A DNA stretch of 64,000 nt from an uncultured Fibrobacterota bacterium (GCA_963753345.1 CAVWBU010000048.1:1-64000); one strand, 5' to 3'; counted from the first letter of the stretch, positions 3,571-31,017 are shown. A program made the numbers and translations. Notes: a model not told the origin generated them from the sequence alone.

Positions 3571-3586
3571 TAGTTGAGACACAAAG

Positions 3587-5452: not shown

Positions 5453-5491
5453 TTGATCCTCCATTATGAATTGGCATAGCAAGAAAAGACT

Positions 5492-5513
5492 TTGGGCGCC
5501 CCGCTGCTTCGCA
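5492..5513 (-). repeat. Truncated 3' end of a family A repeat
   Basis: Reverse complement TGCGAAGCAGCGGGGCGCCCAA is identical to the 3' end of the copy ending at 28213. Confidence 0.7.
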
Positions 5514-13346: not shown

Positions 13347-15400
13347 GGCCCTGGAGGCCTATCTTATTGACACACGGCAAATCGACGCGCTTGCGGGGCG
13401 GCAGGCGGAGCTGTTCAGCCGCCGTCTGGTTGCCGACCGAAATCTTGCGGATGAGGCGCGGATTGTTCTGCTGCTCAACCTTGCCGCGCTTTCCCGCGGC
13501 GCCACGCGGCCGCCGAGGGAATTTCTGCTCAGGCCATTGGATAGGGCGACCGTTGATCAGTACATTGACACATACAAACTAGAGAACCCGAACAAGGTTC
13601 TCGCCTGGAGAACCATACTCACAAATCCATCAACGGCCAAGCGGACCGACAGGATTCTTGATGAGGCAATTAAAACACCAAACAAGTTCCATCCCTTGAC
13701 AGGCAGGGAGCCTTCGGATGAGACGGAAAACTGGCCGCTCCTGATCACCGACGCCGGCAATGGCGGCCGCACAGGATTTTCCCGGTACTGGCGCGCGGCA
13801 AGCAGGCTTGAAACCAGGCTGCGCAAAATTCTGGAAGAACGATCGTCGTCCGAAGTTCGGGACGATAAGGCGGCCAACATTATAAAAGAAGTATTTGAAA
13901 CCGACTCAATCCTCGAACCGGGCAAACGATTTCACTTCCGTCAAGTTGTTGCCGCAGCGCTTGCGCTCAAGCAGCGCTTTCTCGTCGTGTCCGGCGGCCC
14001 GGGCACCGGAAAGACCGGCGTCGTGCTCCAGATCCTCCGCTGCCTTATGCGGGCATTCGACACGCTGGAGCCGGACCGCATCGTGCTGTGCGCTCCCACG
14101 GGCCGGGCAAAGGCCCGCCTGGGCGAGAGCATCGACCGGGGAGTCGAATACCTTGAGAAAAGTGCCCCCGACGCCATGCCGCGAGCGCGATATGGCGCTC
14201 AAAAACCTTTCTCGCAAAACCGTGCACGGTCTGCTTTCGGTCAGGCCGGACGGCGGCACCAGGTACGACAGCGCCAATCCGCTTCCCTGCCGGGTGATTG
14301 TGGTCGACGAAGCGAGCATGGTCGACGTGCACCTCTTTTCGCTGCTTGTCGAAGCAACGGCGCCGGATTGCCGGATCATCCTGCTCGGCGACATGCACCA
14401 ACTCCCGTCGGTCGAGGCAGGCGCGGTGCTCGGAGACCTCACCGAGCGTTTTTCCCCGCTTGCCGATTTCCCCACGCTCTCGCAGGAAACCGCAGGATGG
14501 GTGAAGAAAGTGACGGGGGGAGTCGCGGTTGATAAGACGACGGGAGACGAGGCCGCTGTTGTTCTATCCGGCAAGGAAGCGCTCGAGAAAGCAGGCCTGC
14601 TCGCTGATCATACCATCATCTTGACCAAGACCTACCGTTTCTCTTCAGAACTCATGGCACTGAGTTCGTTTGTCAACCTCGGCGACGCCGACGGCGCGAC
14701 CCGACTTCTGAGCGAGGCGGGCGCATCCGGCGCAGCGGAACTTGACACAAGCAAAGGCTTGAACGCCATCAGACAATGGCTGGAGAAAAGCTATTCGCCG
14801 GAAAAGGTCGCCTGCCTCAAGGCGCTTGGCGCCATCGACTTTGGCGCGGCGCAAAGTCCCGATTTCAGCGAGGCGCTTGGCAAGGCCTTTAGCGTGCTTG
14901 ACGAGTCGCGCATTCTCGTCCTCGCCCATGAGGGCGACCGCGGCCGCATCGCAATCAACCGGCTCGCGGAGAAAATGCTTCGGAAGCAACTTGACGATTC
15001 GGGCGCAAAGGGGTTTTTTCACGGACAGCCGGTGATTCTGAACGACAATTTTCACGGCCTTAACTTGTACAACGGCGACATCGGCGTGGTGGTGCGGGCG
15101 AAAAACGACGCAGCAAAAGTCGTCTTCAGGCGTGGAGGCAGGTATCAGGTGCACAGCCTCGACCGCGTAAGCGGCCTTGAGCCAGCCTATGCCATGACCG
15201 TGCACAAGGCCCAGGGATCGGAGTTCGATGCAGTCCTTCTTGTCCTTCCGGAATATAAAAGTCCCCTGCTTTCAAGACAGATTGTCTACACGGCAATCAC
15301 CAGGGCCAGAAGGAAGGTTGTCATTCTCGGCTCTGAAGAAATGCTGCGTTTAGCAATTAAGACGAGGGAAGAGAGGCCGGGAGGGATCAAACTCGGTTAG
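13333..15400 (+). CDS. recD: Exodeoxyribonuclease V alpha subunit, frameshifted near 14165-14185
   Basis: SGGPGTGKT and CAPTGRA in one frame; TVHGLL, VDEASM, LGDMHQLPSVEAG, LYNGDIG, AMTVHKAQGSEF and YTAITRAR in another frame. Confidence 0.9.
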
Positions 15401-15410
15401 AATTAACAAA

Positions 15411-15588
15411 AATTCTTTGGTGGGGGAAGTGTCCCCCTAGGGTGCGGCTTCCGGCGCCTCCTTAACAAATCCACACACCATCAAACCCGGGGGCGCCGGC
15501 GATCCGCACCCATACCCCCTCGTGGGTAGCCCCCAAGGAAGTTGGTTTGCAAGGAAGAAACTGCGCTGCGGGGGCACCGAGAAGAATT
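15411..15588 (-). repeat. Structured dispersed repeat, family B copy 2
   Basis: Closing stem AATTCTTTGGTG...CACCGAGAAGAATT and conserved B blocks; starts about 10 bp after the recD stop. Confidence 0.8.
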
Positions 15589-15618
15589 GTGGATTGCGGA
15601 ATGCGGATGTCGGATTGA
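15589..15618. repeat. Short degenerate heptamer tandem repeat (GCGGATT-like)
   Basis: gtggatt gcggaat gcggatg tcggatt. Confidence 0.6.
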
Positions 15619-15681
15619 AATAAACCAAGAATAGCATTGCGAGCGGATCTCCCGCAGCTGCACTTGAAATATTTTGCTTTT

Positions 15682-15730
15682 CAGCCACGTAGTGGCGCAA
15701 TATTTTAGCCCGGGGCAACGCCCCGGGAAA
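15682..15730. repeat. REP-like palindromes (GCCAC-GTA-GTGGC; CCCGGGGC-AAC-GCCCCGGG)
   Basis: Two short perfect hairpins, resembling AGCCCxGGGCAACGCCCxGGG-type REPs known from other bacteria. Confidence 0.6.
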
Positions 15731-15752
15731 GCAAAGACAGCAACGCACATTT

Positions 15753-15802
15753 CCCCTCTCCACTTGTGGAGAGGGGTGGCCGCCATGGCGGCCGGGGTGA
15801 GG
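15753..15802. repeat. REP-like element CCCCTCTCCAC-TT-GTGGAGAGGGG...GGGGTGAGG
   Basis: Hairpin followed by GGCCGCCATGGCGGCC and GGGGTGAGG; resembles a widespread extragenic palindrome class. Confidence 0.6.
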
Positions 15803-15823
15803 CGACAGTCTTGAGAAATCATC

Positions 15824-16019
15824 TTGGCGCAAGGCAAAAGATTGACTGATAAGAATTCCGTCGCCGCGCGTTAGGTGGACCGGAGGGTCCCGCCATAGCG
15901 GGATTGCCGGTCGACCCGGCCGATAGGCATAGGGCGATCCGGCAACGAGGCCGCACGGCCGAGCCCGCAGGGAGACCGACCCGAGCCTGAGCGCATGTGA
16001 AGGCGAGGGGAACGCCCAA
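15824..16019 (+). repeat. Structured dispersed repeat, family A copy 1 (GCGTT/AACGC subtype, with 5' extension)
   Basis: GCGCGTTAGGTGGACCGGAGG...GGGGAACGCCCAA, colinear with seven other copies. Confidence 0.9.
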
Positions 16020-16049
16020 TTCTTCCTTGATTACTACTGTATTTGCAAA

Positions 16050-17111
16050 CTATTTATCTTTTATCAACTTCTCCACATATCCCATCAGCACTTCCACTAA
16101 TTTTTCCTCCGGCACCTTCTCCACTATCTTGCCTTTTACGAATATCTGTCCCTCATGTTTTCCTCCCGCAATCCCCACGTCGGCGTCGGCGGCCTCGCCT
16201 GGGCCGTTCACGATGCAACCCATGACCGCAATTTTTATGTTCGCGGTGAGAGGCGACACCATAGCCTCGACCTTTTCCGCAAGCGCTTCGACGTTTATCT
16301 GCGTCCTTCCGCACGTTGGGCACGCGACCACCGTGGGTCCCTGCGCCAGCCCGAGCGACTTGAGGATCTCGACCGCGACGCGCACCTCGTTGACAGGATC
16401 GGAACAGAGTGACACTCGCAGGGTATCGCCGATGCCTTCGCTAAGCAGCGCGCCGATGCCGACGCTCGATCGAATGGTGCCTGTTTTAAGGGTGCCGGAC
16501 TCCGTGATGCCAATGTGCTGGGGAACGTTTGTCGCCTGCGACAGCAGCCGGCAGGCCTCGACCGTGGTGAGCACGTCGCTTGCCTTTATGGAAAGCACGA
16601 TATCGCGAAAATCAAACGAGTCCATCATTTTGATAAATTCGATGGCGCTTTCGACCAGCGCCTGCGGCGAGGGGCCGCCGTGCTTTGCAAGGAGTTGTTT
16701 TTCAAGGGAGCCGGAATTAACTCCTATACGGATGGGAATGTGCGCCGCTTTTGCTGCGTCCACCACCTTCTTTACCTTGTCGGAAGAACCGATGTTACCG
16801 GGGTTGATGCGCACCTTGTCCGCGCCTGCTTCGATTGCGGCAATGGCGAGCTCGTGCTGGAAATGGATGTCCGCCACGAGCGGGACCTTCGTCTGCTTCC
16901 TGATGTTCGCGAATGCCCGGGCCGCGATTGTGTTGGGGACCGCGATGCGCACGATGTTGCATCCCGCGCCGGAGAGTTTCCTGATCTGGGAAAGCGTGGC
17001 CTCGACGTCCTCGGTCGGCGTATTGGTCATTGACTGAACGGAAATCGGCGCTCCGCCGCCTATGGGAACGCCGCGGACGAGGACCTGCCGAGTGTTTTTT
17101 CGTTGTATCAT
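16050..17111 (-). CDS. ispG: (E)-4-hydroxy-3-methylbut-2-enyl-diphosphate synthase
   Basis: ISVQSMTNT, PLVADIHF, RINPGNIG, RIGVNSGSL, GIGDTLRVSL, ACPTCGR and MGCIVNGPGE. Confidence 0.97.
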   Translation of the reverse strand: MIQRKNTRQVLVRGVPIGGGAPISVQSMTNTPTEDVEATLSQIRKLSGAGCNIVRIAVPNTIAARAFANIRKQTKVPLVADIHFQHELAIAAIEAGADKVRINPGNIGSSDKVKKVVDAAKAAHIPIRIGVNSGSLEKQLLAKHGGPSPQALVESAIEFIKMMDSFDFRDIVLSIKASDVLTTVEACRLLSQATNVPQHIGITESGTLKTGTIRSSVGIGALLSEGIGDTLRVSLCSDPVNEVRVAVEILKSLGLAQGPTVVACPTCGRTQINVEALAEKVEAMVSPLTANIKIAVMGCIVNGPGEAADADVGIAGGKHEGQIFVKGKIVEKVPEEKLVEVLMGYVEKLIKDK

Positions 17112-17174
17112 TATGCGTGTCTCACTTAAAAGTAATTACAAAGCTGTTCGTTAGTATGATCACATGGATTTGAT

Positions 17175-17222
17175 GTCACCCTTAGTCTTGTGCTGAGCTT
17201 GTCGAAGCATTGTCGAAGGGTC
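17175..17222. repeat. Nested CTGAGCTTGTCGAAG-type REP-like palindromes
   Basis: Inner GCTGAGCTTGTCGAAGCA lies inside outer GTCACCCTTAGTC...CGAAGGG and is flanked by TTGT at 17188-17191 and 17210-17213. Confidence 0.55.
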
Positions 17223-17327
17223 TTCGGACTCCAAAACAAGCTTGCCAACATTTTTCCATTATATAACAAAGGGGTTCGCTCTTGCAAACCCCTTCTTTCT
17301 TTTCGGAAATCAACAAACATCTTGATG

Positions 17328-18473
17328 TTACATCGCCTGAATCTGCAGCGCCACGCGCAGCCCGGTAAGGCCCGAGACCGCGATGCTGCCCGCCCCTGAT
17401 TTCAGCTTGAACCCGTCGATGCGCGTGCAGAAGCCGTTGGCGTTGCCCTTGTACTGTATGTCAACCACAAGGAGTTTGCTCTGCATGTCCCAGTTGCGCT
17501 CATGCACCCCGCTCACGTTGGGCACCCACTGCAGGGTCTGGATAAGATCGTTTTTCAGGCGGAACGTGCTCACGCCGGAAATGGTAAGCGAGAGCATGAC
17601 GCCGTTGTTCTGCTGGTTCTGCCATTCCTTTATTATCTTGTCAAGAAGGTCCTTGATCGCTTTCTGCGAGGCCTTGGCGATCGCCTGCGTGCCTGCCGTG
17701 GCCGCGCTGATGTGGACCGCCGCCGCGTGCGCCGACGACGCGCCGATGATCCTCGCGGTGGTGCAGTTGACGGCCCGGAGCGTCACGTCGGCCTGCGCCG
17801 AAACCATGCCGCCGAGGTTCTGGCTCATCTGCGTTGCTTCCCTGCCCGTGGCGGTGCCCGTGATGATCACCTCTGCGCCGTTCTGCGAGCCGAGCTGCGC
17901 GGCGGCCGCGGCGTCTCCCGCAATCGTCGCCATTTTCTCCTGCGAGGCGCGGATGGCCGCGCTTGCTTTGGGATCGATAAGCTCGAATTCGTAGGGGTCC
18001 TTGAGGAACTGGAGAATTGCCGTTTCGGCGGCCGAGTTATTGGGCTCGGCCGTGCCCAGGTTGCTTTCCTCTATCACCACCATGGTACGGGGCTTGTTCA
18101 TCGACTCGATGAGGATCTGGAACGCGGCCAGGTCCTCGCGCATGGCGCTTTTTGAAATCACGGCCTTGATCTTCATTTCATAGTAACCTTCGGGCGTCTT
18201 TCCCTCGGAGATTTTCTCATAGCTTCTCACCGCGCCGATGGTCTTGGTAATCACCTGATCTCGCTTCACCTGGAAATTCTCGATCTCGGTCTGGGAAAGC
18301 AGGATCGTGCCTATTCCCTTTTCAATGGCGTTTCTCTTTGCCGAAAGAAGCGCTTCCTCGGGATTGGCGCCCTGACCGTCTCCCTCCGCGGTAATGATGT
18401 CGTCGTCCGCGGCGTACAAAGCGGTCCCGAAAAACAGCGCAATTCCGGCGATTGCAATGGCCAGTTTCCTCAT
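17328..18473 (-). CDS. Exported protein with FlgT-N/LPP20-like N-terminal domain and CsgG/LpoB-like middle domain
   Basis: Signal peptide; EGDGQGANPEEALLSAKRNAIEKGIG; AAAAQLGSQNGAEVIITGT; RBS GGAGG. Confidence 0.6.
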   Translation of the reverse strand: MRKLAIAIAGIALFFGTALYAADDDIITAEGDGQGANPEEALLSAKRNAIEKGIGTILLSQTEIENFQVKRDQVITKTIGAVRSYEKISEGKTPEGYYEMKIKAVISKSAMREDLAAFQILIESMNKPRTMVVIEESNLGTAEPNNSAAETAILQFLKDPYEFELIDPKASAAIRASQEKMATIAGDAAAAAQLGSQNGAEVIITGTATGREATQMSQNLGGMVSAQADVTLRAVNCTTARIIGASSAHAAAVHISAATAGTQAIAKASQKAIKDLLDKIIKEWQNQQNNGVMLSLTISGVSTFRLKNDLIQTLQWVPNVSGVHERNWDMQSKLLVVDIQYKGNANGFCTRIDGFKLKSGAGSIAVSGLTGLRVALQIQAM

Positions 18474-18582
18474 GGCGGTTCCTCCTCCTGTGGTCTCATT
18501 CGAACCGACGGATAGGAATATATATTATCTCAAATATCTTACTTTGAGAGAAATTGAGGAGCAGAAACAGGTCTTAATGGAG

Positions 18583-18735
18583 TTGGGCGCCCCGCGGCTT
18601 CGCCGCGGCGGCCCTCCTTCCGGTCTCGGCCCCTGGCCTCGGGCTGCCACGGCCCTATGGCCCACAGGGCCGGGTCCGGGCAGCATCCCGCTCTAGCGGG
18701 ACCTCCAGTCCGGCCTGGCGCTTGGCAGAGGGGGC
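18583..18735 (-). repeat. Family A copy 2 (GCGCC/GGCGC subtype)
   Basis: Reverse complement reads GCGCCAGGCCGGACTGGAGG...GCCGCGGGGCGCCCAA. Confidence 0.9.
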
Positions 18736-18798
18736 CTTTCACAATCATAACATTCCTGACTAACAAGAATCCGCTCGCTGCATCCTTAAAGATTCCAC

Positions 18799-19009
18799 TT
18801 GGCGTAAGACAGAAGATTGACCGATAAGAATTCCGTTACCGCGCGTTAGGTGGACTGGAGGGTGAGCAAGAGCGAATTGCCGGCCGACCCCGGCCGAAGG
18901 CCATCGGGGCGGTCCGGCAACGAGGCGAACAGCCGAGCCCGGAAGGAGACCGACCCGTCACCGTAGAGACGTAGCGCACTACGTCTCTACGGTGACGGGG
19001 AACGCCCAA
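18799..19009 (+). repeat. Family A copy 3, with a GTAG-type REP in its last hairpin
   Basis: Colinear with copy 1; GTAGAGACGTAG-CGCA-CTACGTCTCTAC at 18963-18990. Confidence 0.9.
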
Positions 19010-19052
19010 ATCTTCCTTATTTAATATATGGAAGAGGTATTTTTCCTCGCCT

Positions 19053-20978
<1,926 letters not shown>

Positions 20979-21022
20979 GAGTGCGGTGATGGCGCGTAAT
21001 ATTTTCATGAATCATTTTTAAA

Positions 21023-21157
21023 GGGGGGGGAAGCTTCCCCCTCGCTGCGGCCTCCTCGGCCTTCGGCCTGCGGTGTCCTCCGCTACCCCCTCCTGGGTGG
21101 CCCCCTTGAGAATGCAGTGGCAAGAGTCAGCTTTGGTTGGGGGGCACCCGCGGAGAG
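21023..21157 (-). repeat. Structured dispersed repeat, family B copy 3
   Basis: GGGGGAAGCTTCCCCC hairpin and CCCCCTCCTGGGTGGCCCCC...GGGGGCACCC stem. Confidence 0.75.
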
Positions 21158-21188
21158 TTGTTGGTTGCGGGCCGGCAAGAGAAGCCGA

Positions 21189-21385
21189 TTGGCGCAAAAA
21201 AGCCGCAGTTGACAGAATAGATTTCCGATGCCGCGCGTTAGGTGGACCGGAGGGTGAGCAAGAGCGCGTTGCCGGCCGACCCTCGCCATAGGCGACTAGG
21301 GCGGACCGGCAACGAGGCCGAACGGCCGAGCCCGCAGGGAGACCGACCCGAGCCAGAGCGCACGCGAGGGCGAGGGGAACGCCCA
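21189..21385 (+). repeat. Family A copy 4
   Basis: GCGCGTTAGGTGGACCGGAGG...GGGGAACGCCCA, with the TTGGCGC..TTGAC 5' extension. Confidence 0.9.
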
Positions 21386-21415
21386 TCTCTTACTTTTAAA
21401 AAAGGACTAGTGACA

Positions 21416-22630
21416 ATGGCTAAATTCAGAGGCAAAGCCCTTCTCCCCGGCCGGTTCGTGTCCCGGTACATCATGCCGCCGCTGCTCACGTTTTCGGACC
21501 TCAACTACTGGCACATGCTGCCGCACCAGGTGCGCAAGTACCTGATCCCCCACGTGTGGCACAAGGACATTCCGGTGGGGCAGATTTCCCTCCGCGTCAA
21601 CGAAGTGTGCAACCTGCGGTGCCGCTCGTGCGGCCAGTGGGGCGAGAACGGCCACCTCACGGCCAAGCTTGCGCGAGGGGAAAAGCTCCAGCAGCTCGAT
21701 TTCGAGGTCGTCAAGCGCGTGGTGTTCGAGACGCGGCGCGACAAGCCGTTCTACTACATCTGGGGCGGCGAACCCACCATGTGGAAGCCGCTTCTGCCGC
21801 TCTTCCAGGAAATGGCCAAATACAAGCTGCTCGGCTCGATCGTCACCAACGCGCAGGCGCTCGACCCGATCATCGAGGACCTCATCGCCACCAAGTCGCT
21901 GTCGGTATTGTTTTTGAGCCTTGACGGATGGGACGCGAAATCGCAAAACCTCATGCGCTCGCCCGCGAGCGGCAAGCTGTCGGAAAACTTCGAGAAGACC
22001 ATGGCCGTGATCGACAAGGTGGACGCCCTCAAGCGGAAAAAGCACCTGCGGTTCCCGCTTGTCATTCCCATCACGGTTATCTCCAACGACAACCACACCC
22101 ACCTCGCCGACATCCACCGGCTCGTACTTGACAAAACGCAATTGCACCCGTTCTACTTCGGCTGGTTCATCACCGAGGAGCGCGCCGCGCTGCATGAAAA
22201 AGTTTTCGAGGAGCGGTTCGGTTGCAGGCCCAAGAACCACCGCGGCTACCTCAAGTCGTGCTTCAACGACGTTGACCCGGCAGTCACCGCGGCGCAGATC
22301 GCGGAGGTCACAAAGATCTCCAAGGGCAGGCCGTCGGTGCCGCAGTTTTTGCCCGACATCACCTCGGAAAAGGACATCCGGCGCTACTACACCGACCACA
22401 CGTGGCACTGCGGGTATCCGAGCTGCGAGAGCATCTACTTTATCGCCGAAATCTCGCCCGACGGCCGCGTGACGCCCTGCCGCGACTACCAGGACTACTC
22501 CTGCGGCAACATCAATACGACGCCCTTCTACGACATCTGGAACGGCGAGAAGTTCAAGCTTTTCAGGCGGGAAATGCAGAAGGGCCTGATGCCGGTGTGC
22601 ACGAGGTGCTGCGGGTTGCAGGGATTCTAA
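21416..22630 (+). CDS. Radical SAM protein with SPASM/twitch domain
   Basis: CNLRCRSC, WGGEP, LSLDG; C-terminal CESIY..PDGRVTPC..GNI..IWNG..CTRCC. The longer ORF from 21242 only runs through the upstream repeat. Confidence 0.88.
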   Translation: MAKFRGKALLPGRFVSRYIMPPLLTFSDLNYWHMLPHQVRKYLIPHVWHKDIPVGQISLRVNEVCNLRCRSCGQWGENGHLTAKLARGEKLQQLDFEVVKRVVFETRRDKPFYYIWGGEPTMWKPLLPLFQEMAKYKLLGSIVTNAQALDPIIEDLIATKSLSVLFLSLDGWDAKSQNLMRSPASGKLSENFEKTMAVIDKVDALKRKKHLRFPLVIPITVISNDNHTHLADIHRLVLDKTQLHPFYFGWFITEERAALHEKVFEERFGCRPKNHRGYLKSCFNDVDPAVTAAQIAEVTKISKGRPSVPQFLPDITSEKDIRRYYTDHTWHCGYPSCESIYFIAEISPDGRVTPCRDYQDYSCGNINTTPFYDIWNGEKFKLFRREMQKGLMPVCTRCCGLQGF

Positions 22631-22713
22631 TTCTAATTCCAATTTCAATTGTGAACTAGTCAAAGCACGTCGGGGGAGAAGTTCTGCCTGTCTCAAAACT
22701 CAGTTAAAGAGCC

Positions 22714-22845
22714 GGGCGCCTGCCTTCGGCACCGGTTCTCCTTCCGGTCTCGGCTAAGGCCTCGGGCTGCCACGGCCCTATGGCCCAGAGGGTCCGGGTC
22801 CGGGCAGCATCCCGCTCTAGCGGGACCTCCAGTCGCCCCTGGCGC
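22714..22845 (-). repeat. Family A copy 5
   Basis: Core nearly identical to 18583-18735 (GACTGGAGGTCCCGCTAGAGCGGGATGCTGCCCGGACCCGG on the minus strand). Confidence 0.9.
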
Positions 22846-22946
22846 AAATACCACTATTCGGGTATCACGTACTCTCACTATGCCGGTTGCGCAAAACCAT
22901 ATCTTTTGTAAGTTGTAAATGGTACGATTTCGTCGGGCTCAAATCG

Positions 22947-23528
22947 CTATCTACAATTCTTCTTGCTGTATCGCCTCAATTTATTGTAGATGTACTCGAA
23001 GTTTCCGTATGTGTACGATTCCTTGCTCAGGGAATCGGAGTTGACCCACTTCAGATATTTCTGAATTTCCTTGTTCTCATAGACGCAATCAACGTAGTAA
23101 CTAAACCCCTCGTTCACATAATCCAAGTCGACAATTCCTCTCCTATAATATTCCCCCAAATCATCAAAAAGATTTAAGATGTACGTGTCCATTTCATAAA
23201 CTGTAAATATTCTCTTGCTGGAAATGACCTTGAGAGGGTTTAGAAACTTGGTCTTTACCGTGTCTACCTCGAAGTAGCCGAATTCAAGGCTGTCACTCGA
23301 ATCTGTTGCTGTCTTGAACTGAATAAAGCCTTCGTCAATCAGCATGATGAGGTATGTCGTCTGGTCGGTGAAGAAATCTGTCTTGAACTTATGAGCGAAG
23401 TCGGCGTTTCGAGTAGCGTTTGAACTGTTCAATTGGAATATGGCGATAAGCAGCCCGATCATAGCTACGAACGGGGTTGCTTTTCGCGCCCCGAACCACG
23501 TTTTAGATAATAGAGTCGTGATTTTCAT
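22947..23528 (-). CDS. AT-rich hypothetical membrane-anchored protein (DUF4760-like)
   Basis: N-terminal hydrophobic helix and ILNLFDDLGEYYRRGIVD segment; composition visibly AT-richer than neighbours. Confidence 0.6.
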   Translation of the reverse strand: MKITTLLSKTWFGARKATPFVAMIGLLIAIFQLNSSNATRNADFAHKFKTDFFTDQTTYLIMLIDEGFIQFKTATDSSDSLEFGYFEVDTVKTKFLNPLKVISSKRIFTVYEMDTYILNLFDDLGEYYRRGIVDLDYVNEGFSYYVDCVYENKEIQKYLKWVNSDSLSKESYTYGNFEYIYNKLRRYSKKNCR

Positions 23529-23765
23529 TGTTTATTAGTGGAAATTCCACTTTCGTCATTCTGCCTAATTGACATCGGTGAACTCAGGCCCGTCGCTGTT
23601 TATTATACCCTTCTTCTTCCCCCTTGTCGACGAAATCGATTTCGTCGGTCCCAATACGGCTTTCTTGCGCAATGAAACGGCAGGTTGCACCTACAAAGAA
23701 ATCAATTTCTGCGCAGTGCCCAAAGCAAGGAGAATGGGCCGCGCGCAAAAGAAGGAATCGGCGTT

Positions 23766-23914
23766 GCCCCTTTCGCCGGCGCCAGGCCGGAACGGAGGCC
23801 GCGCTAGAGCGCGGTGCCGCCCGGACCCGCCGCTATCGCGGCATAGGGCCGTGGCGGCCGGAGGCCGAAGGCCGAGACCGGAGCGAGGGCCGCCGCCGAA
23901 GGCGGGGCGCCCAA
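23766..23914 (+). repeat. Family A copy 6
   Basis: GCGCCAGGCCGGAACGGAGG...GCCGAAGGCGGGGCGCCCAA. Confidence 0.9.
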
Positions 23915-24034
23915 TTCTCTTTTCCACTTCTTATTATATATTCACGCCATTGGAAACTATAGAAACGGCATAAAAAAGATTCCCATGAAAATCAATGATT
24001 TAGCTGTACTTTATAAAGATTATGAATAAAGTTA

Positions 24035-24063
24035 TTGACATTATTAATCTTTTATGGTATATT
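24035..24063 (+). promoter_or_regulatory. Sigma70-type promoter
   Basis: TTGACA-17 bp-TATATT with an extended -10 TG; RBS AGGAGG before ATG 24093. Confidence 0.8.
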
Positions 24064-24092
24064 AGATTAAGAAAATCAATCAGGAGGTCGAA

Positions 24093-24455
24093 ATGCCTAA
24101 TCCCTGGTACGAACTTACTACCCTGACAGGTTCAAAAGAATTCGTCGTGACCTCGGTCAAGCTCAAGGACACCGGCATTTCCATACAAGGGGAGTTCGAC
24201 CTTCCTTCGCTTGCCCGACTTTCCGACGAAGATCAGGTTTTTGTGGCGCACTTCATCCGCACGCACGGTTCAATAAAAGAAATGGAGCAGGCATTCGGCG
24301 TGAGCTATCCCACGATCAAGGCGCGGCTCAACAAGATATGCGGCCAGCTCAAATTCGTTGAGGTGGTTCCAGCGTCCAGGCGCGAGGAAATCCTTGCAAA
24401 ACTTGAAAACGGAGAGATCACCGCGAAACAAGCGGCCGAAGAACTGAGGAGTTGA
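24093..24455 (+). CDS. DUF2089-family HTH protein
   Basis: LSDEDQVFV..FIRTHGSIKEMEQAFGVSYPTIKARL and SHOCT-like tail ILAKLENGEITAKQA. Confidence 0.85.
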   Translation: MPNPWYELTTLTGSKEFVVTSVKLKDTGISIQGEFDLPSLARLSDEDQVFVAHFIRTHGSIKEMEQAFGVSYPTIKARLNKICGQLKFVEVVPASRREEILAKLENGEITAKQAAEELRS

Positions 24456-24456
24456 T

Positions 24457-24739
24457 ATGATACCCAGCATTATGAATTTGAAAATCCATTCCGGCGAGCG
24501 GTTCAAACTCAGGCTGTGGCTTCCATTGTTCATTGTATGGCCGTTCGCGTTTGTCTTTCTTCTCCTGCTGCTGCCGTTCCTTGTTCTCGCGGAAATCGTT
24601 TTGCGGCTGGCAAACGCAAGAATTTATCTGTTCGCCATGATCGGCGCCCTGTTTTCCCTGATTTCAGCCATGCAGGGCCTCACCGTGAAGGGTGAACAAC
24701 GAAAAACACAATTCACTTGTTGACGTAACAATCCGGTAA
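24457..24739 (+). CDS. Small membrane protein, apparent frameshift near 24690
   Basis: LRLWLPLFIVWP hydrophobic stretch; removing one G from the GGG run gives ...VKVNNEKHNSLVDVTIR-stop at 24739. Confidence 0.6.
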
Positions 24740-24754
24740 CTTTGGAGGTGTATT

Positions 24755-25182
24755 ATGAATGAAGAGAGACAACGGATTCTCAAGATGCTCGGCGAGGGGA
24801 AGATCACTGCCGCCGAGGCGGAAGACCTGCTTGACGCTCTGGGAAAAAATACCGGCCAGCAGGCGGCCGAGGCACCGCGGTCGAACCAAAAGTCCTAAAG
24901 AACATCAAGTACATGTACGTGAAGGTCCTGAGCTCGCAGCAGGACAACGTGGACGTGCGCGTGCCGCTCGGGCTCATCCGCGCGGGCATGAGGTTCACCT
25001 CGCTCATCCCGCCGCAGGCCATGGACCAGATCAACAGCTCTCTCAAGGAAAAGGGCATGAATTTCGATCTGGGCAACATCAAGCCCGAGGACATCGAGGA
25101 GCTGATAAAAAACCTTGCGGACATGGAAGTGAACGTGAAATCGAAGAACGGGGACATTGTGAAGGTGTATTGCGGGGAATAG
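24755..25182 (+). CDS. SHOCT-like domain protein, frameshifted near 24880
   Basis: RBS GGAGG; MNEERQRILKMLGEGKITAAEAEDLLDAL, continuing in another frame as YMYVKV..VDVRVPLGLI. Confidence 0.75.
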
Positions 25183-25192
25183 AAAAAGAGAG

Positions 25193-25220
25193 TTGACAGT
25201 TGACGGTTGACAGTTGACAG
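25193..25220. repeat. Heptamer tandem repeat (TTGACAG x4, one variant)
   Basis: ttgacag ttgacgg ttgacag ttgacag. Confidence 0.8.
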
Positions 25221-25265
25221 ACCAGGAATAGGCACGTTTGCTGATTCAATAAGAAAGGAGCGGCC

Positions 25266-25430
25266 ATGGGTCCGGCGGAAATAATGCGGGAGCATATAGA
25301 GTTCTGGACAAGCGATGAATGCACGACGTTGTCGAAGGAGGATGTTGAACTTGTCAGAAAACTTGCTGAAGTTTCGGGGGTGGCGCTGCCGAAATGCTGG
25401 GGGAAGGAAGCAAGAGAGGAGGCGGCATAG
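25266..25430 (+). CDS. Putative 54-aa small protein
   Basis: AAGGAG 5 nt before the ATG; MGPAEIMREHIEFWTSDECTTLSKEDVELVRKLAEVSGVALPKCWGKEAREEAA; below the ORF-track cutoff. Confidence 0.45.
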   Translation: MGPAEIMREHIEFWTSDECTTLSKEDVELVRKLAEVSGVALPKCWGKEAREEAA

Positions 25431-25509
25431 GAAATCTTCTGTCAACTACAATACCAATGTCCTCTCAATGGTCAATTATGAATGCCAATTTTAAGAAGGG
25501 AAGCATTCC

Positions 25510-26259
25510 ATGACCGATAACAACCTCCCGGACAACCACCCTGTTCTTCGCAGCACCGTCTTGTCGCTTGCGCCCGGCATTCTCATGCTGCTGTTTTTTA
25601 TCCTGTTTGCCCCGCTTGCGGTCCGGCATGGTCTTCCGTCAATGCTTGTCATCTTTATTGCCATCCCACTGGTCCTTATTCCTTTCGAAATGGGATGGCT
25701 TTTCCTTCAAGGCAGGAAGCTGAATGGCCGTCCGTCATTAAAAGGGATTGTGCTCTTCAAGGAAAAGATTCCTGTCTGGCAATTCTTCATATTAATTCCA
25801 CTTCTTTTGTTCTGGGCCGTCTTTTGCTTTGGTGTCATTGCAAACAAAGTGGACCCGTTTTTTATTAATACCTTCTTTGGATGGCTGCCGCATTGGTTCT
25901 TCATCAGCTCATTTACGGAGAATATCGGCCAATACCCAAAGGTCATTGCATGGATCACAATTTCTGTGGGTCTGATTTTTAACGGCTTTGTCGGACCTGT
26001 TGTTGAAGAATTGTATTTTAGGGGTTATTTATTGCCACGACTGCGTCAGACGGGCGGATGGGCCCCGCTGTTAAATGTCTTGCTCTTTTCCCTGTATCAC
26101 TTTTTTTCTCCATGGCAGAATGTAACCAGAATACTGGCGCTACTGCCCCTGGTTTATGCTGTTTGGTGGAAACGCAATATCTACATCAGCGTGATCACTC
26201 ACTGCACGCTCAATACAATGGGAATGATTGGAACAATTTTCTTGTTATTCAAAACATAA
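25510..26259 (+). CDS. CPBP (CAAX/Abi) family intramembrane metalloprotease
   Basis: Multiple transmembrane helices; EELYFRG, FSLYH and HCTLN motifs. Confidence 0.9.
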   Translation: MTDNNLPDNHPVLRSTVLSLAPGILMLLFFILFAPLAVRHGLPSMLVIFIAIPLVLIPFEMGWLFLQGRKLNGRPSLKGIVLFKEKIPVWQFFILIPLLLFWAVFCFGVIANKVDPFFINTFFGWLPHWFFISSFTENIGQYPKVIAWITISVGLIFNGFVGPVVEELYFRGYLLPRLRQTGGWAPLLNVLLFSLYHFFSPWQNVTRILALLPLVYAVWWKRNIYISVITHCTLNTMGMIGTIFLLFKT

Positions 26260-26293
26260 TTAGAAAATCAATCAATATTATCGCATACAGCTT

Positions 26294-27163
26294 TTATTTA
26301 TACGCAACCACACCAAAAGCCTTTGCCAGCGATATTACCTTCTTGAACCCTGCATCATGCAGACGTTTCACCACGCCTCTGGTAACCTTTGCCCCCGCAG
26401 CGCTATTCGGATCGCCGATGTAATGGAACATCCGTCCGCGCTGATTTAAAACCCGGAAAGCCTGCCTGTAGAATTCTCCCGAATAAAGGTCTCCGGCAAG
26501 GGCCATGGTCGGAGGATCATGAATGATTGCGGCAAAAGTGTTATCCGCGAATTTTCCGATTTCCCGAAGGCTGTCTCCGATGATCTGCGAGATATTCGGG
26601 TTGTTAAAAAGGGATTGGGACCATGGGTTCATCCGCGCCATCTCCTGCACAACGGGGCACAGCTCGATGGTGGTGACGGCCGATGCCGTTTTCGAAGCAA
26701 TAATGGCCGTATACCCGAGCCCGGTTGCGGTGTCGAGCACTTTTCCGTGAATCGGCATGACCGGTTCAACCATGGCGAGCGCGGCTTTGAGCGGCGTGAT
26801 GTTCTTAAAACGGTGCATGGGAAACCCGGCCGCGACCAGGACCGGGGCCTCGGATGTGGGCATAAGGCTGTAGGCGCGGCCGAGAACATCCGAGAAACCG
26901 CGAATGGGACTGGCCGCATTGTCCTTTACAAAAAAGCACGCGTTTTCATTGGAGTCTATCTTTTCAACAGACTGCCAGTTGAGAACCGATGAATCCGGAA
27001 AAATGATGTGATCGGAAGTCAAGGTGACTTCTATGGTGGTGATCCCAAGGTCGATGGAGGTGGTGGATGAGGTCTGTCCCTGTTTGCGTGCCGCAAGTAA
27101 GGGAGAGGTTTGAAAGTGGGAGAGGACAGGGAGCATGGGTGAAGGGCCGGTGGGAATTGTCAT
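26294..27163 (-). CDS. SAM-dependent methyltransferase (COG2521-like)
   Basis: VLDTATGLGYTA, NPWS, IIHDPP and GDLYSGEFY motifs. Confidence 0.8.
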   Translation of the reverse strand: MTIPTGPSPMLPVLSHFQTSPLLAARKQGQTSSTTSIDLGITTIEVTLTSDHIIFPDSSVLNWQSVEKIDSNENACFFVKDNAASPIRGFSDVLGRAYSLMPTSEAPVLVAAGFPMHRFKNITPLKAALAMVEPVMPIHGKVLDTATGLGYTAIIASKTASAVTTIELCPVVQEMARMNPWSQSLFNNPNISQIIGDSLREIGKFADNTFAAIIHDPPTMALAGDLYSGEFYRQAFRVLNQRGRMFHYIGDPNSAAGAKVTRGVVKRLHDAGFKKVISLAKAFGVVAYK

Positions 27164-27235
27164 GGTGTGCTTGAGGCTATTATTTCCTTTTCAAAAACAG
27201 TGTTTGGTCATGAAGGTTGTCTTTCCGTTGATTTG

Positions 27236-27919
27236 TTAAGACTTGCTTTTGCAGGTTATCAATAAATGCCTTAGATTTGTTAATTCCTCTATTTTCAAGA
27301 TACCTCTTAAATGACGGATGATGGTTGATGTTGCAATACTTGGGTCAATATCAGAATCATCGTTATTTTCTTTTAGTCCTAGTACCTTTTTGAAGGTACT
27401 GTACATGTTCTTAACTGCTCCATTATCATTTGCACCGCCTGGGTCAACCTTATAATATTGCGCTTCAGCACCGATACCTCGCAATGCCTTTTCGAAAGGT
27501 TCGAGGTTCCGGTCGATTTCATTTGTTAACCAAGTCGCATGCTTAATTCTAATCTGTAATAGCCTGTCAGCAAGTGAAAGGGCTGTTGGGGATGGACCTT
27601 CGCGAAATAATGTTGCAACTGAAGATTGCATTTCTTTCATATATTCTTCACAAAATGACACATGTTCGTTGAAAACAACGTCAGCCATATGAGTAGTTGC
27701 ACCTAAATCAAAGGATTGCTGATCATGCTGAAGGGAAAGGTTCTTCTGATATTGTGTCTCGTCAAGAAAAAGACGATACAAAACACCAAGCAGCGCAAGG
27801 ACACCAGGGGAGCCATAAAAGTATTTGAAAATGTTTTCGGCAGGTAAAAGTAGAGCTGATACAAACGACAACGCGACAACGCCAAACAATATTGCATAGA
27901 TTTTCCACGACAGTTTCAT
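27236..27919 (-). CDS. AT-rich hypothetical protein with two N-terminal transmembrane helices
   Basis: 227-aa ORF, RBS AAGGA, strongly AT-rich relative to flanks. Confidence 0.65.
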   Translation of the reverse strand: MKLSWKIYAILFGVVALSFVSALLLPAENIFKYFYGSPGVLALLGVLYRLFLDETQYQKNLSLQHDQQSFDLGATTHMADVVFNEHVSFCEEYMKEMQSSVATLFREGPSPTALSLADRLLQIRIKHATWLTNEIDRNLEPFEKALRGIGAEAQYYKVDPGGANDNGAVKNMYSTFKKVLGLKENNDDSDIDPSIATSTIIRHLRGILKIEELTNLRHLLITCKSKS

Positions 27920-28050
27920 TTCAAAGTCCTTCTTGTAATATTGAAATCAGCCTATAGTATTATAGTCTTTAAAGAAATGTGCATGTTTAGATTCGTTATA
28001 CTTTTCCTCAAAATGTTCATCATCGTGGGCACTGCCCATAACTATACAAA

Positions 28051-28213
28051 TGCGCCATCCCCTTCTGCCGCGCGCCAGGCAGGACTGGAGGCCGCGCCAA
28101 AGCGCGGTGCCGCTCGGACCCGGCCGCGTACTCGCGGCATAGGGCCGTGGCGGCCCGAGGGCGCGCCCGAGACCGGAAGGACGGCCGCCGCTGCGAAGCA
28201 GCGGGGCGCCCAA
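28051..28213 (+). repeat. Family A copy 7
   Basis: GCGCGCCAGGCAGGACTGGAGG...GCGAAGCAGCGGGGCGCCCAA. Confidence 0.9.
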
Positions 28214-28260
28214 TTTCTTATCTTGCTTTGCCACAAAATCTATCTACTACGCTCCCCTCC

Positions 28261-29376
28261 TCAATTCTCAATCACCGAATTCACAATCTCCTTCTTCGTA
28301 TCGTCAAACATCGATATCCCCGGCAGCGTGTACCACGACCCGCCGATGTTGTTCCTGATCACCGAGTTTTCAATGACAACATTTCCGGTGTGATCGTCGG
28401 TGACGAAGAAGATGGCCGACCCGAAGGCGTTCACCTGGTTGGAGTCGATGAGGCAGCCGCACAAAGAAAGCGTCATGGTGTTGCCGTCGTTGTAGATTGC
28501 GCCGCCGCTGCCGCCGCCGGGAGTGCCGGTCTGCGCCGGGTTGCCGCCGTTGCCGATTGCCCTGTTGTAGGAGAACAGGCAGTTGATGAGCGTCCACGAC
28601 ACGCCGATGCTGCTGATCCCTCCGCCGTTCGCGCCCACGTTTCCGTAGCCGGGCGCGCCGCCGAACGTGGTGTTGACAACATAAACCGGCAGGTTGTTGT
28701 ACTGGGAAAAGACCCGTATGGCCGCGCCGCCCACGTCCGGCCCGCTGTCCGCGCAGACATTATTGAAGAACCGGCAGTTGACCACCTTGAACCTGCCGCC
28801 CCTCACCCATATCGCGCCGCCGCCGTCATACACCGTTTCGTTCCTGGAATTCCCGTTTATAAACGTGAGGTTCTGTACCGTGAGGTGCGGGCTGTCCTGG
28901 TTCTGGCAATGCGACGTTGTCCAGTGCTGGTTGGAATCGCAGGTGTTCATGTAGAGAATGCGCGTGGTGTTGCCGCCGCTCAGGGTGACCAGCCCTCCTC
29001 CGTCGATCACGATGTCCTGTATCGAATCGTTGAAGACTTTTGCAGGCTGATTGAGCGTGATGGTGAACGGTGCCGATCCGCCGTTGAACACGATCTTCCC
29101 GCCCGAAGCCACCGCGGCGATGAACGCATCCGGCGTGCAGCTTTCCGGCGTGCCGGTGCCGATCACATGGTCAGGAGTGGTAACGTCCTCAGGCCCGGCC
29201 TCGCTGGGAATCGGACACGTTCCTCCCGGATTTCCTGCCGGCGGGCCGGAAAGTGGATTGGCCAGCGGGTTGGTGACGGTGACGTAGGTGATGGGGGTGC
29301 TGGGGGATTGACAGGATGAGAGGAGGCAGGCGACAAATACTGCGAAGAGGATTTGGGTGATTTGACGTGCATGCAT
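28261..29376 (-). CDS. Secreted lipoprotein with Gly/Asn-rich beta-helix-like repeats
   Basis: Lipobox LLSSC; GTGTPESCT; GGGAI/GGAAI/GGAIY and FxNN repeats. Confidence 0.75.
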   Translation of the reverse strand: MHARQITQILFAVFVACLLSSCQSPSTPITYVTVTNPLANPLSGPPAGNPGGTCPIPSEAGPEDVTTPDHVIGTGTPESCTPDAFIAAVASGGKIVFNGGSAPFTITLNQPAKVFNDSIQDIVIDGGGLVTLSGGNTTRILYMNTCDSNQHWTTSHCQNQDSPHLTVQNLTFINGNSRNETVYDGGGAIWVRGGRFKVVNCRFFNNVCADSGPDVGGAAIRVFSQYNNLPVYVVNTTFGGAPGYGNVGANGGGISSIGVSWTLINCLFSYNRAIGNGGNPAQTGTPGGGSGGAIYNDGNTMTLSLCGCLIDSNQVNAFGSAIFFVTDDHTGNVVIENSVIRNNIGGSWYTLPGISMFDDTKKEIVNSVIEN

Positions 29377-29639
29377 CGTGTGTTGCTCCTTGAAGAGTGC
29401 GACGACCCTGTTGTTTGCTCATGTCCCCCATGATAATGCTCTTTGCTATTGACCAAAAACTAAATCATTTCCCTCATGAAAAGTCAACTTCCCTGTCTCA
29501 AATCAATGGCATTGGGGTGGTGATGGAACACGATCAGGGATGATCGTGGCACACGGAAGTTTTTTAAGCTCAGGAGTATCAATTGACAAACTAACGGCGG
29601 AAGAAACAATCGAGACGTTTGATTACCAGACTTTTCAAC

Positions 29640-29853
29640 TGCGCCCTGCCCCTCTGCCGCGCGTTAGGCAGGACCGGAGGGTGCGCCAGAGCGCATTGCC
29701 GACCGACGACCCTTGGAAGCACCCGACGGGGTGCCCTGCCGCTAGGCATAGGGGCGGTCCGGCAACGAGGCGAATAGCCGAGCCCGGAGGGAGGGCCGAC
29801 CGCTGCGAAGCAGGGCGCACTATGAGGCGCCCTGCATTCAGGGGAACGCCCAA
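29640..29853 (+). repeat. Family A copy 8, with extra inserted hairpins
   Basis: GCGCGTTAGGCAGGACCGGAGG...GGGGAACGCCCAA; inserts GCACCC-GACG-GGGTGC and GCAGGGCGC-N8-GCGCCCTGC. Confidence 0.88.
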
Positions 29854-29886
29854 CTTTCTTATTTCTTCAAAGTAAATTTTTTACTC

Positions 29887-31017
29887 TTACCCCGCCACCC
29901 GCTCATAAAACGTCCTCAAATCCGTCACCACATGCTCCATCGACTGATACCGCTCCCGGATGCTGCCCATGCACTTCACGATGATCTCGCTCAGCTCCTC
30001 AAATCCCCTGGGCGGCGTTCTCAGCGTGGGTTTCTCCCGAGCGAGCCTTGACAGCACGTTCGTCGTGCTTTTGCCGATGCTTTTCGGGTGCATGCCGTAC
30101 AAAAGCTCGTAGCACACCACGCCGAACGAGTAGATGTCGGTGCGCTGGTCGAGGTTTTCCGGATTGTAAATCTGCTCGGGCGACATGTAGTACTGCGACC
30201 CGATGATGACGCCGTCGAATTTCGAGCCGTACGATTTTACCCACCGCACCGTGCCGAAGTCCGCCAGCTTCACCTCGATCTTCCTCTCCCTTCCCCTGCG
30301 CCATGCGTCCGCGTCGCCGGGACGGGGCGGGACAAAACTTTTGGGGAACAGAATGTTTTCCGGCTTAATGTCGCGGTGAAAGATGCCTTCGGTGTGCACA
30401 TTGCTGATCATCTCGGCGATGGTGAGCATGAGCCTCGTCTTAAACAGGAGAAGGTCTGGCGAATCGGCCATGTATTTCTTGTCGCTCAAAAATCCGCGGA
30501 GCGTGGAGCCCATGCGCTCCATAAGGATGAACCGGAAGCTGTTTTTGTGATCGAATTCCCCGAAGTCAAACACCTTCACCACGCTGCGGGAGACCGTGTC
30601 CGACAGGCTTTTCGAAAGGTCCCACTGCACGTAGGACTCGTTGGTGAACCGCTTCTTCATGTCTTTGACGCGCATTTCCTCTTCATTGGGGCCGCTGCCG
30701 GGGTCCCTGCGCACCACGAGAAGGTCGCTGCGGAGGATCTTGATTGCGAAATCGGACAAGCCGTCGTAACTCGACACCGCCTTGAACACGTCGGCAAAGC
30801 CGCCGCTCCCCATATGGTCGCCGATGACGATCGAGGGGGTGTGCTTTTTAAACACGGCGCGGATCCGGTCGAAATGCCGCTGGAGCACCTTTGCGTCGGA
30901 AGGGCGGGAAAACACCTTCATGGTGAGACGGAACGGAATGCGGCCGATACGTTCGACAAGGGAGTCCATGGGGGCATGCTCCTTCTCTGCCGTCGAATTT
31001 TCTATGGAGTGCGGCAA
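29887..31017 (-). CDS. Cytoplasmic Hanks-type Ser/Thr protein kinase
   Basis: GSGGFADV, AIK, HRDIKPEN, DFG, YMSPEQ and DIYSFG; no transmembrane segment. Confidence 0.92.
   Translation of the reverse strand: MPHSIENSTAEKEHAPMDSLVERIGRIPFRLTMKVFSRPSDAKVLQRHFDRIRAVFKKHTPSIVIGDHMGSGGFADVFKAVSSYDGLSDFAIKILRSDLLVVRRDPGSGPNEEEMRVKDMKKRFTNESYVQWDLSKSLSDTVSRSVVKVFDFGEFDHKNSFRFILMERMGSTLRGFLSDKKYMADSPDLLLFKTRLMLTIAEMISNVHTEGIFHRDIKPENILFPKSFVPPRPGDADAWRRGRERKIEVKLADFGTVRWVKSYGSKFDGVIIGSQYYMSPEQIYNPENLDQRTDIYSFGVVCYELLYGMHPKSIGKSTTNVLSRLAREKPTLRTPPRGFEELSEIIVKCMGSIRERYQSMEHVVTDLRTFYERVAG

Follow-up and report, generated by a model that had tools for sequence, protein, structure and literature searches.

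Family A is a structured intergenic repeat that we analyzed in a stretch of 64,000 nucleotides (nt) of DNA, hereafter the window, from an uncultured Fibrobacterota bacterium (GCA_963753345.1, CAVWBU010000048.1:1-64000). It is an uncatalogued element of roughly 155 nt, belonging to Chitinivibrionales-like Fibrobacterota. A sequence-only reading of the window had pointed to eight full copies between positions 15824 and 29853 as an unrecognised family of covarying hairpins; this was a sound find, but it under-scaled the family and partly mis-drew it. We propose, at somewhat better than even chances, that family A belongs with REP, BIME, BOX and TwoAYGGAY among the selfish mosaic repeats. Its unit would be a small-RNA cassette made of a linker, a folded RNA and a T-rich tail, and whose copies would be shuffled mainly by recombination with one another.

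All eight copies are real. They were confirmed, at or a few bases from the positions first given, by cmsearch with R1, a covariance model built from these eight copies and 20 diverse ones from elsewhere in the genome (103-144 bits, E-values of 7e-41 to 1e-28), which detected no further copy in the window. On the window's contig, nhmmer recovered the same eight copies and no others, and a repeat finder also returned the eight as direct and inverted families. Their alignment contains 51 invariant columns and has a mean column identity of 55%.

Family A had been described as a feature of these 14 kb, but it is found throughout the genome. The assembly of origin (G000) has 55 contigs and 4.52 Mb, with a completeness of 94% and a contamination of 4.8%, the window belonging to contig C48. 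A search of it with nhmmer and a hidden Markov model (HMM) of the eight window copies gave 410 matches at E < 1e-3, which lie on nearly every contig and add up to 61,161 nt (1.35% of all the DNA). As many as seven copies occur in other 20-kb stretches. The whole model is spanned by 350 of the matches, with lengths of 129-231 nt (median 155), and 324 copies remain once pairs at 97% identity or more are removed. The median identity is 71.5% between pairs of copies and 92% between nearest neighbours, and to judge from these sequences family A is an old and diverse population, not the product of one recent burst.

No family of Rfam 15 matches the copies, and a search of positions 15000-30500 at E <= 10 adds nothing. 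In the literature on Chitinivibrionales repeats, covarying structured intergenic repeats, Fibrobacter RNA motifs and REPIN/RAYT systems, supplements aside, we found no description of family A. A repeat reported from Caldithrix was considered and discarded, since in the accessible part of that paper it is an unrelated 18-nt palindrome. The earlier view that the element is no tRNA, riboswitch-like leader or classic short REP is also supported.

Fold and covariation

In the fold supported by covariation, P1 is extended by P2 and P2b, which together close a three-way junction of P3, P4 and P5, to which a hairpin P7 is added. P1 (GCGYY/RRCGC) pairs the two ends of the element, P3 is a hairpin, P4 a long arm, P5 a hairpin with tandem G.A, and P7 a variable hairpin located between P2 and the 3' strand of P1. 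That pairing is kept through compensatory changes within a real repeat family, as first noticed on the window copies, was confirmed by RNAalifold, by mutual information and by two shuffle-tested alignments. RNAalifold, applied to 28 copies, returned the helices P1, P3 and P5, the base of P4 and one further small hairpin; 11 of the 23 pairs show a compensatory change. The mutual-information scan, performed on an HMM alignment of the 324 non-redundant copies that had been fitted to no structure, recovered P1, P2, P3, P4 and P7.

The same scan revealed an unexpected pair between columns 27 and 116 (T-A in 163 copies, C-G in 135, 97% canonical), which are the Y of GGACYGGAGG and the fourth base of a GGAR "loop". 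The simplest nested reading of this pair would be a long-range helix, P2b, in which CYGG of GGACYGGAGG pairs with CC..RG of CCGGARGG, the GGA being bulged out; P2b would stack on P2. The Y and the R are absent together in distant homologues. This corrects the first drawing of the fold, where the segment had been taken as a local CC-GGAA/GCA-GG hairpin: across genera that hairpin is the worst helix, with 71.7% of cells paired and no both-side change, and the CC-GGAA-GG segment would rather be the 3' strand of P2b, pairing with GGACYGG.

Both scoring alignments, which were fitted to a model, were compared with shuffled versions. Among 129 copies from the genome itself, 90.6% of cells are paired against 80.3% after shuffling and 28-50% with slid partners, and both sides have changed in 452 cells (cells, not independent events) against 158 after shuffling; none of 500 shuffles reached the observed values. 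The second alignment brings together 23 copies found in 15 genomes belonging to several genera. With the original structure of R1, 90% of its cells are paired against 72% when shuffled, and both-side changes occur in 17 of 23 pairs, which again none of 500 shuffles attained. P1 shows five pair types across genera, its inner pairs being U-A, C-G, G-C or A-U and its third pair having undergone one G-C to C-G change. The support for P2 is weaker than for the other helices and rests on inspection: a one-column shift of the alignment from one subfamily to another leaves 68.5% of its cells paired among the 129 copies. In a pattern test of this helix 249 of 350 copies fell outside the patterns, and its counts were not used.

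G.T cells outnumber A.C cells (121 vs 60, 37 of the latter lying in a misaligned part, P4b), tandem G.A mismatches occur in P3 of one subfamily, and the tandem G.A of P5 is conserved. This asymmetry and the tandem G.A point to a single folded strand, the one that had been taken as sense from the beginning. As for the statement that compensatory changes imply selection on a folded structure, it can be retained for the lineages that multiply, but a function of each individual copy is not implied.

Composite units and their turnover

Sequence features recur on both sides of the fold. TTGAC is found upstream of P1 in 187 of 328 anchored copies (exactly 26 nt before it in 150), with GGCGCRA 17 nt further up. 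Downstream, a T-rich tail begins about 5 nt past P1, T representing 50-80% of the bases at positions +2 to +17 in 346 copies. In copies from distant genomes, P1 is preceded by an A/T-rich box and a pyrimidine run and followed by CCCARAT. An 8-nt tandem repeat, GTTGAAAA, is present in the unit consensus and in sampled flanks and absent from the window's own copies.

Copies are also combined with one another. We counted 29 head-to-head A-A doublets, inverted over their whole arms and separated by 99-115 nt in 22 cases; they occur in every kind of spacer. Besides, a GC-rich module, module B, lies in register 75-275 nt upstream of 216 of 334 family A copies. Its own 277 matches cover 42 kb of the genome; a family A copy follows in 189 cases, and the other 88 stand without one. 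Together, family A and module B make up about 2.3% of the 4.5-Mb genome. The sequence of module B opens with TTGGTGGGGG and includes a long hairpin, GGGTGGCCCCC...GGGGGCACCC. Since this start resembles the reverse complement of the ...CCCCACCAA end of another repeat, family C, module B is probably an element read on the opposite strand, and a B-A unit would then be a head-to-head pair as well. The ends of single B-A units share only TTGG...CCAA. The possibility that module B encodes a small protein was discarded, the frames being not kept open and the lengths not multiples of three, in a check where the start motif caught only 54 of the 216 copies.

Family C is a third structured repeat, which begins with GCGTTGCGAAGG and ends with ...CCCCACCA(A/G)AT. 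It is found in the spacer between the ABC-F and radical-SAM genes of a congener, G004 (contig C35, about 10990-11170), as well as in that of another, G005 (contig C47). In G000, blastn gives 34 partial matches to it, none on the window's contig.

Comparison of strains and species argues for a mobile-element-like behaviour, which had been suspected from the start and which takes the form of cassette replacement between strains and between sister species. In the sister genome G001, whose coding flanks are 83-94% identical to those of G000, the same two spacers are occupied. The copy upstream of its ABC-F gene has the interior of another subfamily, with a linker and last 20 bases or so that are nearly identical; the minus-strand arm of the doublet found at this place in the window is absent and module B stands instead; and the B and A that occupy the helicase/ispG spacer differ in type from those of G000. 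Strain-variant contigs with flanks 97-99% identical illustrate the same process, a stretch of 479 nt with a family A copy facing 62 unrelated nt in one case, and an A-A doublet facing a different cassette (555 vs 352 nt) in another. The ABC-F/radical-SAM spacer contains A alone in G002, B and family C in G004, family C in G005 and nothing in G003. In four DNA metagenome runs, contigs break off and accumulate at the copies, where only cross-copy joints were seen and no clean empty allele.

The assembly itself mixes strain variants, as indicated by small contigs that are often 90-99.9% identical duplicates of parts of larger ones (C4/C5/C16, C10/C39/C43, C44/C45/C46, C50/C51/C8, C53/C30/C48 and others). 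For instance, C53 carries a duplicate of the last part of the window's contig (54138-64635).

The closest named relatives of the IspG protein encoded in the window, with 71% and 65% identity, come from Chitinivibrionales metagenome-assembled genomes of the phylum Fibrobacterota. Using R1, we detected family A in 12 of 31 relatives. Four of the five other genomes of the genus have at least 93 matches each, and the fifth, G003, has none at a completeness of 99%. In an even sample of the phylum searched with stricter filters, 21 of 151 Fibrobacterota genomes match at E <= 1e-5, some of them from beyond the order. We counted 21 matches at E <= 1e-3 in a 2.3-Mb genome from another family; multi-copy matches elsewhere in Fibrobacterota are weaker than in the congeners. 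Viral contigs gave no match to a 22-nt degenerate motif of family A, and plasmid and phage collections no blastn match to one copy. The copies of G002 and G005 that occupy the same spacers as those of the window are not their best matches, and orthology is therefore unusable to measure per-copy conservation.

Family A copies and other features of the window

The 14 kb that carry the copies had been taken as intergenic DNA. The region is in fact coding, with genes for a RecD-like helicase, IspG/GcpE, an ABC-F ATPase, a radical-SAM/SPASM protein, a DUF2089 protein and a protein kinase, as well as several open reading frames (ORFs) without Pfam family, and the copies lie in the spacers between them. 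Three copies had moreover been drawn too long at their start (15824, 18799 and 21189): the leading 36-40 bases belong to a conserved upstream linker, outside the fold. This type-1 linker (TTGGCG..TTGAC..GATAAGAAT), found directly upstream of P1 at 15824-15859, 18799-18834 (+) and 21189-21228, is a candidate promoter or recognition site.

The copy at 15851-16024 (+), of the GCGTT/AACGC type (124.7 bits with R1, also found by nhmmer), lies between the convergent helicase and ispG genes, its 3' end about 30 nt from the ispG stop codon. An A-A doublet of the window combines arms of different subfamilies, namely a left arm of the GCGCC/GGCGC type at 18578-18738 (-) and a right arm at 18826-19014 (+), upstream of the ABC-F gene. 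A copy at 21218-21391 (+), located between that gene and the radical-SAM gene, has module B before it. The window's shortest copy, at 22707-22858 (-) and again found by both cmsearch and nhmmer, separates the radical-SAM gene from an ORF of 193 amino acids (aa). It is followed by a copy at 23762-23919 (+) upstream of the DUF2089 gene (Pfam assignment of the neighbours), by one at 28055-28218 (+) that is antisense to both flanking ORFs in our home-made gene calls, and by one at 29644-29858 (+), which has an enlarged P4 arm and P7 hairpin; 34 nt separate its 3' end from the kinase stop codon. All eight copies were delimited with R1.

A partial copy noticed at 5492-5513 (-) is also real. It belongs to a fragment at 5472-5513 (-) that comprises a family A 3' end together with its tail, a 42-nt arm of an inverted repeat that is 90% complementary to 28192-28233. 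Module B was located by its own HMM with nhmmer and by the repeat finder at 15416-15592 (+), before the copy at 15851, where its own sense is likely the minus strand; at 21023-21163 (+), before the copy at 21218; and at 3408-3578 (+), where no family A copy follows.

The sole Rfam match in the window, and for this family in the whole genome, is Acido-Lenti-1 (RF01687) at 15683-15727 (-), with 41.9 bits. It lies outside the copies, in the non-coding stretch between module B and the family A copy. Because a nearly identical stretch occurs in G001 in a different spacer, upstream of the ABC-F gene, it looks like another movable module. Two pairs of direct repeats, 19140-19198/20112-20170 and 19594-19641/20443-20490, correspond to the two ATP-binding cassettes of the ABC-F gene and are ordinary.

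Among the 350 full copies of the genome, 26 overlap a called gene by more than 60 nt, and many ORF frames overlap GC-rich repeats; such repeats probably seed false ORFs in automatic annotation.

Possible modes of spread and function

How could a repeat of this kind multiply? In the mosaic-repeat reading that we favour, the conserved linker would act as a promoter for an RNA that begins immediately ahead of P1, and a T-rich tail would complete the cassette. The fold would be selected on the sense strand because it is needed by whatever copies or binds it. Copies are joined in pairs, either head-to-head A-A, with a spacer of about 106 nt, or B-A, which would be head-to-head as well, and they would spread and be shuffled by recombination or gene conversion between copies, plus some further mobilising activity. 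A parallel can be drawn with the pneumococcal BOX and the Neisseria Correia elements, modular and stable folded repeats of about 100-200 bp that lie beside genes, may carry promoter-like sequences and are co-transcribed. To our knowledge BOX has no dedicated transposase, and we know of no junction fold kept across a phylum in either. Family A is likewise a modular mosaic of small folded repeats, but with other sequences and other hosts; the long terminal inverted repeats and TA duplications that characterize Correia elements were not seen.

Several observations weigh against this proposal. No mobilising gene was found. Four comparisons, two between species and two between strains, gave no target-site duplication and no clean empty site, and mobility therefore rests on turnover and patchy distribution. 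In the type-1 linkers, a simple scan for sigma-70 sites gave no promoter, and it gave one promoter-like site before the copy at 29644. With TTGAC taken as a -35 box at the usual spacing, transcription would begin within P1. No hairpin-plus-T terminator was detected at any 3' end of family A among 17 terminator-like sites in 15300-30000, a count equal to the shuffled expectation. The folding energy of one copy is no different from that of shuffled sequences (z = -1.45 sense, -0.95 antisense); it is because of copy number and covariation, and not of folding energy, that we consider family A to be more than chance. The copy number is itself slightly inflated by redundant strain-variant contigs, and the covariation within the genome lies largely between a few subfamilies, independent events being far below the cell counts. 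Finally, the gene calls that define the context of the copies were made with a crude home-made predictor and cover 78% of the genome.

As a tentative and not very likely further reading, family A could be a new class of complex-folded small RNA that would itself be the unit of proliferation. Each unit would be an RNA gene of about 160-190 nt with its own promoter and with P1 as closing helix, maintained in hundreds of copies and throughout the Fibrobacterota. Its conserved junction (GGAC.GGAGG, CCGAGG..CCGAG and CCCGGA.GGAG) would serve as a docking or catalytic site for a partner yet to be discovered. This partner could be a domesticated recombinase or an RNA-binding protein belonging to none of the Y1, TnpB, IS110 and reverse-transcriptase families, unless the RNA acts on itself. 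Module B and family C would then be sister classes, the same machinery reading their shared ...CCC(A)CCAA end.

We consider it unlikely that family A is a DNA-level non-autonomous transposon of the MITE, REPIN or PATE kind, its fold forming in single-stranded DNA and being recognised by an HUH or other enzyme acting in trans, with no role for RNA. The high copy number, the patchiness among congeners and the turnover between strains agree with this idea. So do the head-to-head doublets, which are REPIN-like, and the TTGG and CCAA that stand at the start and end of all composite units. A single-stranded DNA intermediate would fit the G.T/A.C strand asymmetry too, and there is a weak bias in orientation with the local GC skew (110/83 vs 31/55, odds ratio 2.35, p = 0.002, elements unmasked). 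On the other hand, the bases left unpaired in the junction phylum-wide and the tandem G.A are more typical of RNA, and the allelic differences described above are replacements, not clean insertions. PATEs, which derive from IS200/IS605, and orphan omega-RNAs have strand-specific folded ends, no target duplication and a structured region of about 150 nt. Family A resembles them in its strand-specific fold, its size and the lack of target duplication. It differs from them by the absence of TnpA(Y1) and TnpB and of a guide-like single-stranded variable segment, since its variable parts are self-paired hairpins.

The search for an enzyme also argues against a DNA-level transposon. In G000, we obtained no match to TnpB (PF07282), Y1/RAYT (PF01797) or reverse transcriptase (PF00078), the positive controls of the Y1 search giving matches in 6 of 14 genomes. 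There is a single IS110 gene, about 3.4 kb from the nearest family A copy, and thus no copy stands beside any of the four kinds of mobilising gene that the sequence-only reading had envisaged. The genome also contains one IS91-type Y2 gene, seven DDE_Tnp_1 matches, one rve match and eight tyrosine recombinases; the DDE_Tnp_1, rve and IS110 loci have no consistent link to the copies. No transposase lies between or beside the copies of 20 (-,+) pairs with gaps of 300-3000 nt, which enclose ordinary genes such as those for DinB, trigger factor, a short-chain dehydrogenase and glycosyltransferases. G000 has no high-identity multi-copy transposase family either, its high-identity protein families corresponding to duplicated contigs.

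Two candidate partners deserved closer attention and were rejected. The Y2 HUH gene of the IS91 type is found in 8 of 12 relatives with family A and in 6 of 19 without it, which could suggest an association, but it was not found in the A-rich G005 (96% complete) and G018, its presence in the six genomes devoid of family A also speaks against it, and no A-like sequence was detected, with filters off, within 26 kb around five Y2 copies (one in G000, four in G002). A PD-(D/E)XK transposase was considered because of a weak Pfam match, below the cut-off, beside one of two copies in a distant genome (G137), but the association did not hold more widely; PF12784 and PF04754 are unmatched in the six genomes of the genus. 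Some of the transposase loci have features of their own. The Y2 gene of G000, a frame of 489 aa, adjoins a DDE_Tnp_1 gene of 524 aa (C26:283266-286341), and the same Y2 type occurs six times in G002. Three DDE_Tnp_1 matches score identically, each in an open frame of 164 aa (C18:84641-85048, C32:215672-216079 and C49:51509-51916), and may represent a small IS5-like element that is present at least three times. A family A copy lies some 500 nt from one of these loci, with none close to the remaining two.

A rather improbable explanation is that the copies are passive structures serving the host in the manner of REP sequences, as 3'-end stabilisers, read-through barriers or insulators that work in either orientation and have no transcription of their own. 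Their distribution lends it some support. By our gene calls, 336 of the 350 copies could be classed, 104 lying between convergent genes, 106 between co-directional genes in sense, 69 between co-directional genes in antisense and 57 between divergent genes, while the 3,058 spacers of the genome comprise 465 convergent, 2,128 co-directional and 465 divergent ones; convergent spacers are thus enriched, and A-A doublets too are most often convergent (13 of 29). The 3' end of family A lies at a median of 26-34 nt from a facing stop codon and of 81-132 nt from a facing start, with about 280-375 nt of non-coding DNA on the 5' side, a greater length explained by the module B that lies upstream of many copies. 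Both strands, in addition, fold strongly. Passive structures would however leave unexplained the asymmetry between G.T and A.C, the unpaired junction bases kept throughout the phylum and the fixed upstream linker. No single copy appears to be needed, as one congener lacks the family and strains differ in their cassettes, and there is no canonical terminator: the idea that the copies are intrinsic terminators was rejected, no G+C-rich hairpin with a T run within 0-2 nt being present at their 3' ends in 15300-30000.

A comparison can also be made with REP, BIME and REPIN/RAYT systems (PMC3116915, PMC3337134, PMC8266576 and PMC3733652). REP and BIME share with family A the hundreds of intergenic copies, the inverted doublets, the mosaic combinations of repeats, the location near gene ends and between convergent genes, and the compensatory pairing. 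But a REP is a single palindrome of 20-40 bp, whereas family A has 129-231 nt (median 155) and seven helices, long-range ones included. It also departs from REPIN/RAYT systems in that there is no Y1/RAYT gene, the arms of its doublets usually belong to different subfamilies and most copies pair with module B.

Two more explanations are nearly excluded. A cis-regulatory, riboswitch-like leader for the downstream gene would agree with the complex conserved junction and with the window copies standing in sense before a 381-aa ORF and the ABC-F, radical-SAM and DUF2089 genes; nevertheless, copies occur in every orientation, only 163 of 336 facing a gene start and 173 a gene end, from which it follows that family A is not a leader. 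The downstream genes are moreover unrelated housekeeping genes, there are about 400 copies per genome, and sister strains and species may have a replacement, or no copy at all, in the corresponding spacer, all of which makes this explanation very improbable. The least credible one, a multi-copy sponge RNA for CsrA/RsmA, takes as binding sites four nearly invariant GGA motifs (GGAC, GGAGG, GGAA and GGAG) in or beside the junction and draws on the published TwoAYGGAY analogy (accessible part of bioRxiv 10.64898/2026.09.22.753630), but CsrA (PF02599) was not found in the high-copy carriers G000, G001, G002 and G005 while it is present in G003, which has no copy, and in G004 (two of the six genomes of the genus in all), and the fold supported here engages several of the GGA motifs in helices.

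For the mosaic-repeat reading, the closest published parallel in behaviour is, by analogy and as far as the accessible part of the same preprint goes, the architecture of TwoAYGGAY loci. TwoAYGGAY (RF01731) is an RNA of Pseudomonas proposed to be a multi-copy CsrA/RsmA sponge, for which the authors suggest a mobile-element-like expansion with no known mechanism (bioRxiv 10.64898/2026.09.22.753630). As described in that part, it is like family A a multi-copy structured intergenic element, whose number varies greatly between related genomes and which is associated with divergent doublets, upstream short tandem repeats and other repeat types. The two are nonetheless distinct. They belong to different phyla and do not match in sequence or structure (Rfam, E <= 10), and family A forms a closed multi-helix junction of about 155 nt and does not co-occur with CsrA. 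The spacer of its doublets measures 99-115 nt, against a median of 249 bp in the part of the preprint available, and its copies number about 400 per genome, against 48 in the strain described there.

How REP, BIME, BOX and TwoAYGGAY-type repeats spread, and what role they have, is settled for a few of them only. Family A presents an unusual combination of a covarying junction fold kept phylum-wide, an extreme copy number, a fixed head-to-head geometry and an exchange of cassettes between strains without the usual mobilisers, and this combination makes it a clean system to learn how such repeats multiply and what reads their fold. There is also a practical side, since the copies break metagenome assemblies of this lineage, probably create spurious ORFs and would escape Rfam-based annotation.

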